A stretch of DNA of 64,000 bases, taken from assembly GCF_016026235.1 (NCBI RefSeq), contig NZ_CP065613.1, one strand, 5' to 3'. The DNA is from Escherichia coli. Lineage in GTDB: Bacteria; Pseudomonadota; Gammaproteobacteria; Enterobacterales; Enterobacteriaceae. A program made the position numbers and the translations under genes. Below are positions 51,517-51,530 of the stretch, one piece after another. Positions within the stretch are counted from its first letter, which is position 1, and each line of letters begins with the position of its first letter. The notes beneath the pieces were generated by a model. It made no database searches. It saw only the letters and a program-made list of their open reading frames with translations, and was not told where the DNA came from.

Positions 51517-51530
51517 GTTCGTATACGAAC
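51517..51530. promoter_or_regulatory. Perfect 14-bp palindrome gttcgtatacgaac in the divergent intergenic region; candidate operator
   Basis: Lies 18 nt upstream of the UbiX-like start and 116 nt upstream of the MarR-like start. Confidence 0.4.

Follow-up and report, generated by a model that had tools for sequence, protein, structure and literature searches.

A 14-bp palindrome between hosA and vdcB of Escherichia coli matches the characterised HosA operator and is conserved from Escherichia to Rahnella

The HosA operator and its counterpart in the window

The closest described system is the HosA operator of the HAD (non-oxidative hydroxyarylic acid decarboxylase) operon in Escherichia coli. 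HosA from E. coli UMN026 was studied with DNA made to carry the palindromic "14-bp TFBS of HosA" (PMC6261655, Science Advances); the protein bound this site in EMSA and biolayer interferometry (BLI), and 4-hydroxybenzoic acid (4-HBA), for which ITC gave a Kd of 4.74 uM, dissociated the complex. Binding of HosA and its release by 4-HBA were repeated by a second group (PMC6694116). Both articles cite Roy & Ranjan 2016 (Biochemistry 55:1120; 10.1021/acs.biochem.5b01163) as the source of the system. According to the summary of that study in a bioRxiv structural paper, HosA represses the HAD operon and itself, 4-HBA derepresses, and the position of the palindrome, downstream of the HAD transcription start, points to steric hindrance of RNA polymerase. 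In vivo repression, the position relative to the start and autorepression are therefore given here as reported at second hand by that citing paper.

Looser parallels exist within the wider family. Operators of the MarR/SlyA type (MarR, SlyA, OhrR, HucR) have in common with the HosA site a dimeric winged-helix repressor, a promoter palindrome and release by a small ligand, but the HosA half-site GTTCG with its 4-bp YRYR centre is a specificity of its own. PcaV of Streptomyces coelicolor is a MarR-family repressor that senses phenolic acids, is released by protocatechuate and binds a palindrome in a divergent promoter region. Its structure (PDB 4FHT, E = 1.3e-15) is among the three closest solved relatives after HosA, the entries 6PCP and 6PCO matching HosA marginally better. 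PcaV differs from HosA in its ligand, in its targets (pca catabolism) and, presumably, in its operator sequence.

We analysed a stretch of 64,000 nucleotides of E. coli DNA (the window), in which positions 51517–51530 read GTTCGTATACGAAC. Sequence reading and a palindrome script both bear out the preliminary description of this 14-mer as a perfect even palindrome. We designate it HosA operator O1 (GTTCG-TATA-CGAAC, no strand assigned) from its sequence, its conservation and published HosA-binding oligonucleotides. Symmetry in the window allele stops at 14 bp (T at 51516 versus G at 51531); the O157:H7 allele has a palindrome extended to 16 bp, TGTTCGTATACGAACA. The site sits inside the 146-bp intergenic region of two divergent genes, hosA on the plus strand and vdcB on the minus strand. 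The offsets first given for it, 18 to the UbiX-like start and 116 to the MarR-like start, are correct, the gap being 17 nt to the vdcB start codon (ATG at 51499–51497, minus strand) and 115 nt to the hosA ATG at 51646.

The MarR-family regulator adjoining the operator is, by protein similarity, HosA. Its 135-aa reading frame (51646–52053, plus strand) encodes a product identical at 131 of 134 residues (98%, E = 5e-83) to PDB 8AGA, "Transcriptional regulator HosA", and six more PDB entries of that name are matched by the same protein. It has MarR-family NCBIfam matches and the RefSeq label MarR family regulator, and it resembles SlyA (27 bits) and MarR (25 bits) weakly. The divergent operon vdcB/C/D spans 49232–51499 on the minus strand. 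It is headed by vdcB (50906–51499), a pad1/ecdB-type gene for a UbiX-family flavin prenyltransferase of 197 aa (NCBIfam VdcB, 312 bits with a cut-off of 290; PDB 1SBZ, E = 1.6e-129). The next gene, vdcC (49479–50906, minus strand), encodes the UbiD-family catalytic subunit of a non-oxidative hydroxyarylic acid decarboxylase (NCBIfam VdcC, 790 bits with a cut-off of 650; PDB 7AE4 "phenolic acid decarboxylase", E = 2.4e-160), and vdcD (49232–49468, minus strand) encodes the small subunit D (NCBIfam VdcD, 121 bits with a cut-off of 30).

The match to the published site extends to the DNA itself. The oligonucleotide table of PMC6261655 contains GTTCGTATACGAAC within probes of 43 bp and longer, and the flanks of these oligonucleotides, TCTTAATT and GTTATTATTAA, match the window, with at least 8 nt in common on each side. 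One of them, DNAHosA-R0, is the TUM14759 allele of our own E. coli alignment (A1). The boxed site in the machine-read supplement of that paper, GTTTCGTATACGAAC, has 15 nt with one extra T; we regard it as a reading or typing error for the 14-bp palindrome because it is identical on both complementary oligonucleotides. The window thus shares with the UMN026 module the same 14-bp sequence and immediate flanks, a 98% identical regulator and the same place in the mutS-rpoS region, with hosA on one side and the divergent decarboxylase operon on the other; the published ligand is 4-HBA. Its differences from that module are only allelic and lie elsewhere in the intergenic region (about 94–100% identity among E. 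coli alleles). HosA of the window differs from 8AGA at three residues, and the published binding concerns the UMN026 protein and site.

We conclude, with a probability of roughly 93%, that HosA uses this palindrome as its operator at the HAD operon, which makes it a rediscovery of an operator already characterised. The proposal that it serves as the operator of the adjacent MarR-type regulator is upheld by the identity to 8AGA, by the published EMSA and BLI on the same 14-mer and by conservation. Ligand-responsive control of the decarboxylase operon, which had also been proposed, is supported by the published release of HosA (the UMN026 protein) by 4-hydroxybenzoate.

The locus is the mutS-rpoS variable region of E. 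coli. To the right of hosA lie rpoS, nlpD, pcm, surE, truD and ispF, and to the left of the operon lie ygbM- and ygbN-like genes (2-oxo-tetronate isomerase and GntP-family transporter; 46994–49223); these and the hosA-vdc cluster both stand in the mutS-rpoS interval. The gene order in EDL933 is mutS-pphB-vdcD-vdcC-vdcB-regulator-rpoS; there, unlike in the window, pphB directly adjoins vdcD, and both are layouts of a known polymorphic region. The 361 bp around the operator are present in 2389 of 5426 complete E. coli genomes, in two main allele groups (at least 99% and 90–95% identical to the window), and are annotated everywhere as a MarR-family regulator plus decarboxylase subunit B.

Several lesions were seen in and near these genes. 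The rpoS gene of the window (52174–53166, minus strand) has an in-frame TGA at 52627–52629 where EDL933 has CGA (Arg180). This nonsense mutation, a further difference of the window strain from the UMN026 module, cuts RpoS after 179 residues, and the strain is probably an rpoS null or attenuated mutant. In E. coli O158:H23 (L005, NZ_CP076709.1, 2837–3337), a deletion that takes out vdcB, the intergenic region and the operator joins a vdcC remnant to a 5'-truncated hosA, both remnants being annotated as pseudogenes. In E. coli IR53017 (L004, 1–301), vdcB is annotated as frameshifted and the operator and hosA are intact.

Chance level and conservation of the operator

Perfect palindromes of this size are not rare in the window. 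Even ones of 14 bp or more number three, where dinucleotide shuffles yield 5.6 ± 2.7, and those with arms of at least 6 number 38, where 39 are expected. By our own arithmetic, the shuffle rate leads to about 0.013 palindromes of at least 14 bp, and about 0.09 with an arm of at least 6, per 146-bp intergenic region, so that the position of a 14-bp palindrome in this divergent region is mildly improbable and nothing more. In a search of the window, the exact 14-mer with up to three mismatches allowed likewise occurs at the chance rate. A search for further HosA targets in the window with GTTCGNNNNCGAAC at up to one mismatch gave three matches versus 2.9 expected, and none beyond the operator. 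Because perfect 14-bp palindromes are no commoner than in shuffles, the palindrome by itself proves nothing, and these counts are what a functionless chance palindrome in AT-rich intergenic DNA would lead one to expect. Evidence beyond chance for an operator is its conservation, with the literature supplying its meaning.

We evaluated conservation by a scan with the regulator protein, taking one genome per species, which gave 80 loci; they range from Escherichia to Rahnella and Erwinia, and their regulators are 59–98% identical. The divergent arrangement of regulator and vdcB is kept in 73 of the 80 loci, with an intergenic length of 145–199 bp in all but one of these. Conservation of the palindrome in other carriers of the operon had been suggested as a check on its role, and 75 of the 78 orthologous intergenic regions preserve both arms, GTTCG and CGAAC, without a change, including those next to regulators down to 59% identical; the three exceptions are Rahnella species with CGAAT. 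The central four bases are always YRYR (TATA 29, TGTA 22, TACA 10, CATA 10, TATG 3, CACA 1). The flanking base is Y to the left of the site and R to its right; A/T-rich sequence comes next, and the remaining intergenic region diverges. The consensus over about 78 species is Y-GTTCG-YRYR-CGAAC-R, a pair of 5-bp arms with centres 9 bp apart, as in a generic MarR operator, kept alongside regulators of 59–98% identity. Of five E. coli alleles sampled, four carry the 14-mer unchanged and the fifth differs by a central T-to-C change.

In 509 kb of related loci, where 0.49 occurrences would be expected, the motif GTTCG-N4-CGAAC is found 80 times and always at the same intergenic position. This excess, the exactness of the arms while neighbouring bases diverge, and the published binding of HosA together rule out the chance reading of the palindrome, to which we give practically no weight.

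Six loci have no vdcB beside the regulator; their divergent gene opens with the VdcC N-terminus (MAFDDLRSF...), and the same motif stands before it. These loci (L055, L067, L070, L076, L082 and L084, at about 2840–2900 in each) belong to Pluralibacter, Superficieibacter, Cedecea, Rahnella victoriana and Erwinia endophytica. Because the vdcC-first loci keep the site before vdcC, we count them in favour of the operator reading. A separate variant was seen in Enterobacteriaceae bacterium LSJC7 (L074, 2402–3001), where the hosA/vdcB intergenic region has 598 bp versus about 170 elsewhere. The operator there stays beside vdcB (position 2419), with AT-rich extra DNA in between that may be an insertion.

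Predicted promoters of the decarboxylase operon and of hosA

A consensus scan for a sigma-70 promoter in the region found none. We attribute this miss to the weak match of the operon elements, each of which agrees with the consensus at 4 of 6 positions (8 of 12 in total). In the alignment anchored on the operator, 58 of the 78 intergenic regions have CTTG[CT] 39–40 nt upstream of it, and this conserved element suggests a –35 of TTGCCG at 51563–51568 (minus strand) for the decarboxylase operon; within CTTG[CT]C, the –35 reads TTGTCA in many genera. The predicted –10, TATGTT at 51540–51545 (minus strand), follows 17 nt after the –35 and coincides with a conserved G-TA-n-TTT at a fixed distance from the operator. 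A residues are conserved 2, 3 and 5 nt before the operator. We infer that the operon starts near A51533, which would place the operator at about +4 to +17, consistent with the statement in the bioRxiv summary that the site is downstream of the start. Between operator and ATG, at 51506–51512 (minus strand), one reads AAGAGGA, the Shine-Dalgarno sequence of vdcB. An alternative –10-like element, nAWAAY (AATAAC, 51536–51531), abuts the operator and would put the start inside the palindrome.

In the mechanism we propose, the two arms of the site (GTTCG/CGAAC, centres 9 bp apart) would each be contacted by a recognition helix of a HosA dimer. Bound just past the operon start, HosA would block RNA polymerase from initiation or promoter clearance, and with either choice of –10 the dimer on the operator would occlude initiation or early elongation. 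4-Hydroxybenzoate entering the cell would bind HosA and take it off the DNA, allowing transcription of the vdcBCD (HAD) operon that decarboxylates 4-HBA. HosA binding and release by 4-HBA are published, and the –35, the –10 and the exact start are our predictions from the alignment. The preliminary description had envisaged an operator overlapping the promoters of both divergent genes; the regulator site stands as an operator, but the overlap probably does not, the site being placed by our model at or just after the operon transcription start, as a roadblock.

The site is probably transcribed, at about +4 to +17, and its letters could then form a hairpin in the RNA (GUUCG-UAUA-CGAAC), in place of an operator or in addition to one. 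At the 5' end of the vdcB mRNA, such a hairpin might make the transcript more stable or adjust its translation. The minimum-energy fold of the leader does include the 5-bp hairpin, a terminator scan also flagged the stem, and the loop positions vary while the stem is kept. However, the leader fold does not stand out from shuffles (z = –1.64), of which 15 in 200 are equally or more stable, and the vdcB Shine-Dalgarno sequence lies outside the hairpin. The stem is invariant and never covaries, as expected of base-specific protein contacts, and the loop is limited to YRYR, a restriction needless for a tetraloop. A second copy of the motif in other genera, described below, has a CGATC arm and would mispair as RNA; because this copy occurs, we argue that the motif is a sequence recognised by a protein. 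An Rfam search gave no family match near the gathering score at the operator. We consider the RNA element very unlikely and retain the HosA operator. As intrinsic terminators, both this palindrome and the second one of the region were flagged by the scan, yet no gene ends at either, and this candidate was rejected.

The second palindrome, of 13 bp, had been noted at about 51608–51620; it exists, but one base further on, as CGCTATGATAGCG at 51609–51621 (no strand assigned). It holds TATGAT (51612–51617), the predicted hosA –10. Across genera, TAT[GC]AT stands 27–31 nt before the hosA ATG in 69 of 78 regions (28–29 nt in 60 of 78), and the core C-TATSATA-G is conserved among them. Non-Escherichia genera have TTAAAA or TTATAA exactly 17 nt upstream of TATSAT, an ordinary sigma-70 geometry; in Escherichia no TTAAAA stands at that distance. 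Both the T-run beside the palindrome and its 13-bp symmetry are Escherichia-specific, other genera having GGCTATCATAGAG.

Lying 24 nt before the hosA ATG and overlapping the –10-like TATGAT, CGCTATGATAGCG could instead be a second HosA operator that gives autorepression. Autorepression by HosA is indeed reported in the bioRxiv summary, and CTATSATAG is conserved beyond the needs of a –10 (G at –2, C at –1, A at +6 and G at +7, taking the first T of TATSAT as 0). Against such a role, CGCTATGATAGCG bears no likeness to the GTTCG/CGAAC half-sites, its symmetry is confined to Escherichia, an ordinary promoter would account for its constant spacing from the ATG and for the TTAAAA that other genera have precisely 17 nt upstream, and the published HosA binding site is described as a single 14-bp site (PMC6261655). 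A second operator here thus seems unlikely to us, and the conserved spacing suggests that the second palindrome is most likely the hosA –10 region and not a HosA-type site.

Compared with other genera, Escherichia has an intergenic region about 25 bp shorter (about 146 bp versus about 157–180 bp; 51575–51625 of the window compared with L011–L079). The Escherichia A-run now lies beside the hosA –10, making a terminator-like stem plus T-run on the minus strand (51623–51607). An 11-bp deletion between AAACC repeats was considered as the cause of the short Escherichia region and dropped, the alignment being ambiguous there. We also rejected the symmetric TATSAT as a bidirectional –10, there being no supporting –35 on the minus strand.

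A second HosA-like site in other genera

A second HosA-like site, typically GTTCGYRYRCGATC, is present in 36 of the 78 regions when up to two mismatches in the arms are allowed (loci L012, L014, L021, L023–L024, L026–L028, L031, L033, L036, L038–L041, L044, L047–L049, L051–L063, L065, L068–L069 and L071), and with one mismatch in 28 of these. It always lies 56–57 bp from the first site and directly abuts the upstream edge of the operon –35. In shuffled intergenic regions, a match with up to one mismatch was found in 0.3%. The site is present in Klebsiella, Enterobacter, Kluyvera, Leclercia, Lelliottia, Pseudocitrobacter and Pluralibacter, the form in Klebsiella or Enterobacter (O2) being GTTCGTACACGATC. 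It is degenerate in Phytobacter and, among the 78 intergenic regions, was not found in Escherichia, Citrobacter, Salmonella, Kosakonia, Atlantibacter or Rahnella. Tentatively, the second site may be functional and as yet undescribed, in which case the well-studied one-operator module of E. coli would be a pared-down version of a design with two operators, either ancestral or alternative; we hold this as a possibility somewhat short of even odds.

As a discovery, the operator itself carries little weight, the HosA operator, its ligand 4-hydroxybenzoate and its target operon having been characterised in 2016 and the 14-bp site having already been used in in vitro biosensors. The case does demonstrate that a real operator can be inferred from sequence alone, as the preliminary description did. 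The comparative analysis adds the clean consensus over about 78 species and a promoter model. Two modest leads, the second site of the Klebsiella/Enterobacter group and the remodelled hosA promoter of Escherichia, may be of use for sensor engineering or for comparing regulation across genera. If the two-operator design is real, it would imply tighter or cooperative repression and could matter for the design of HosA-based biosensors.
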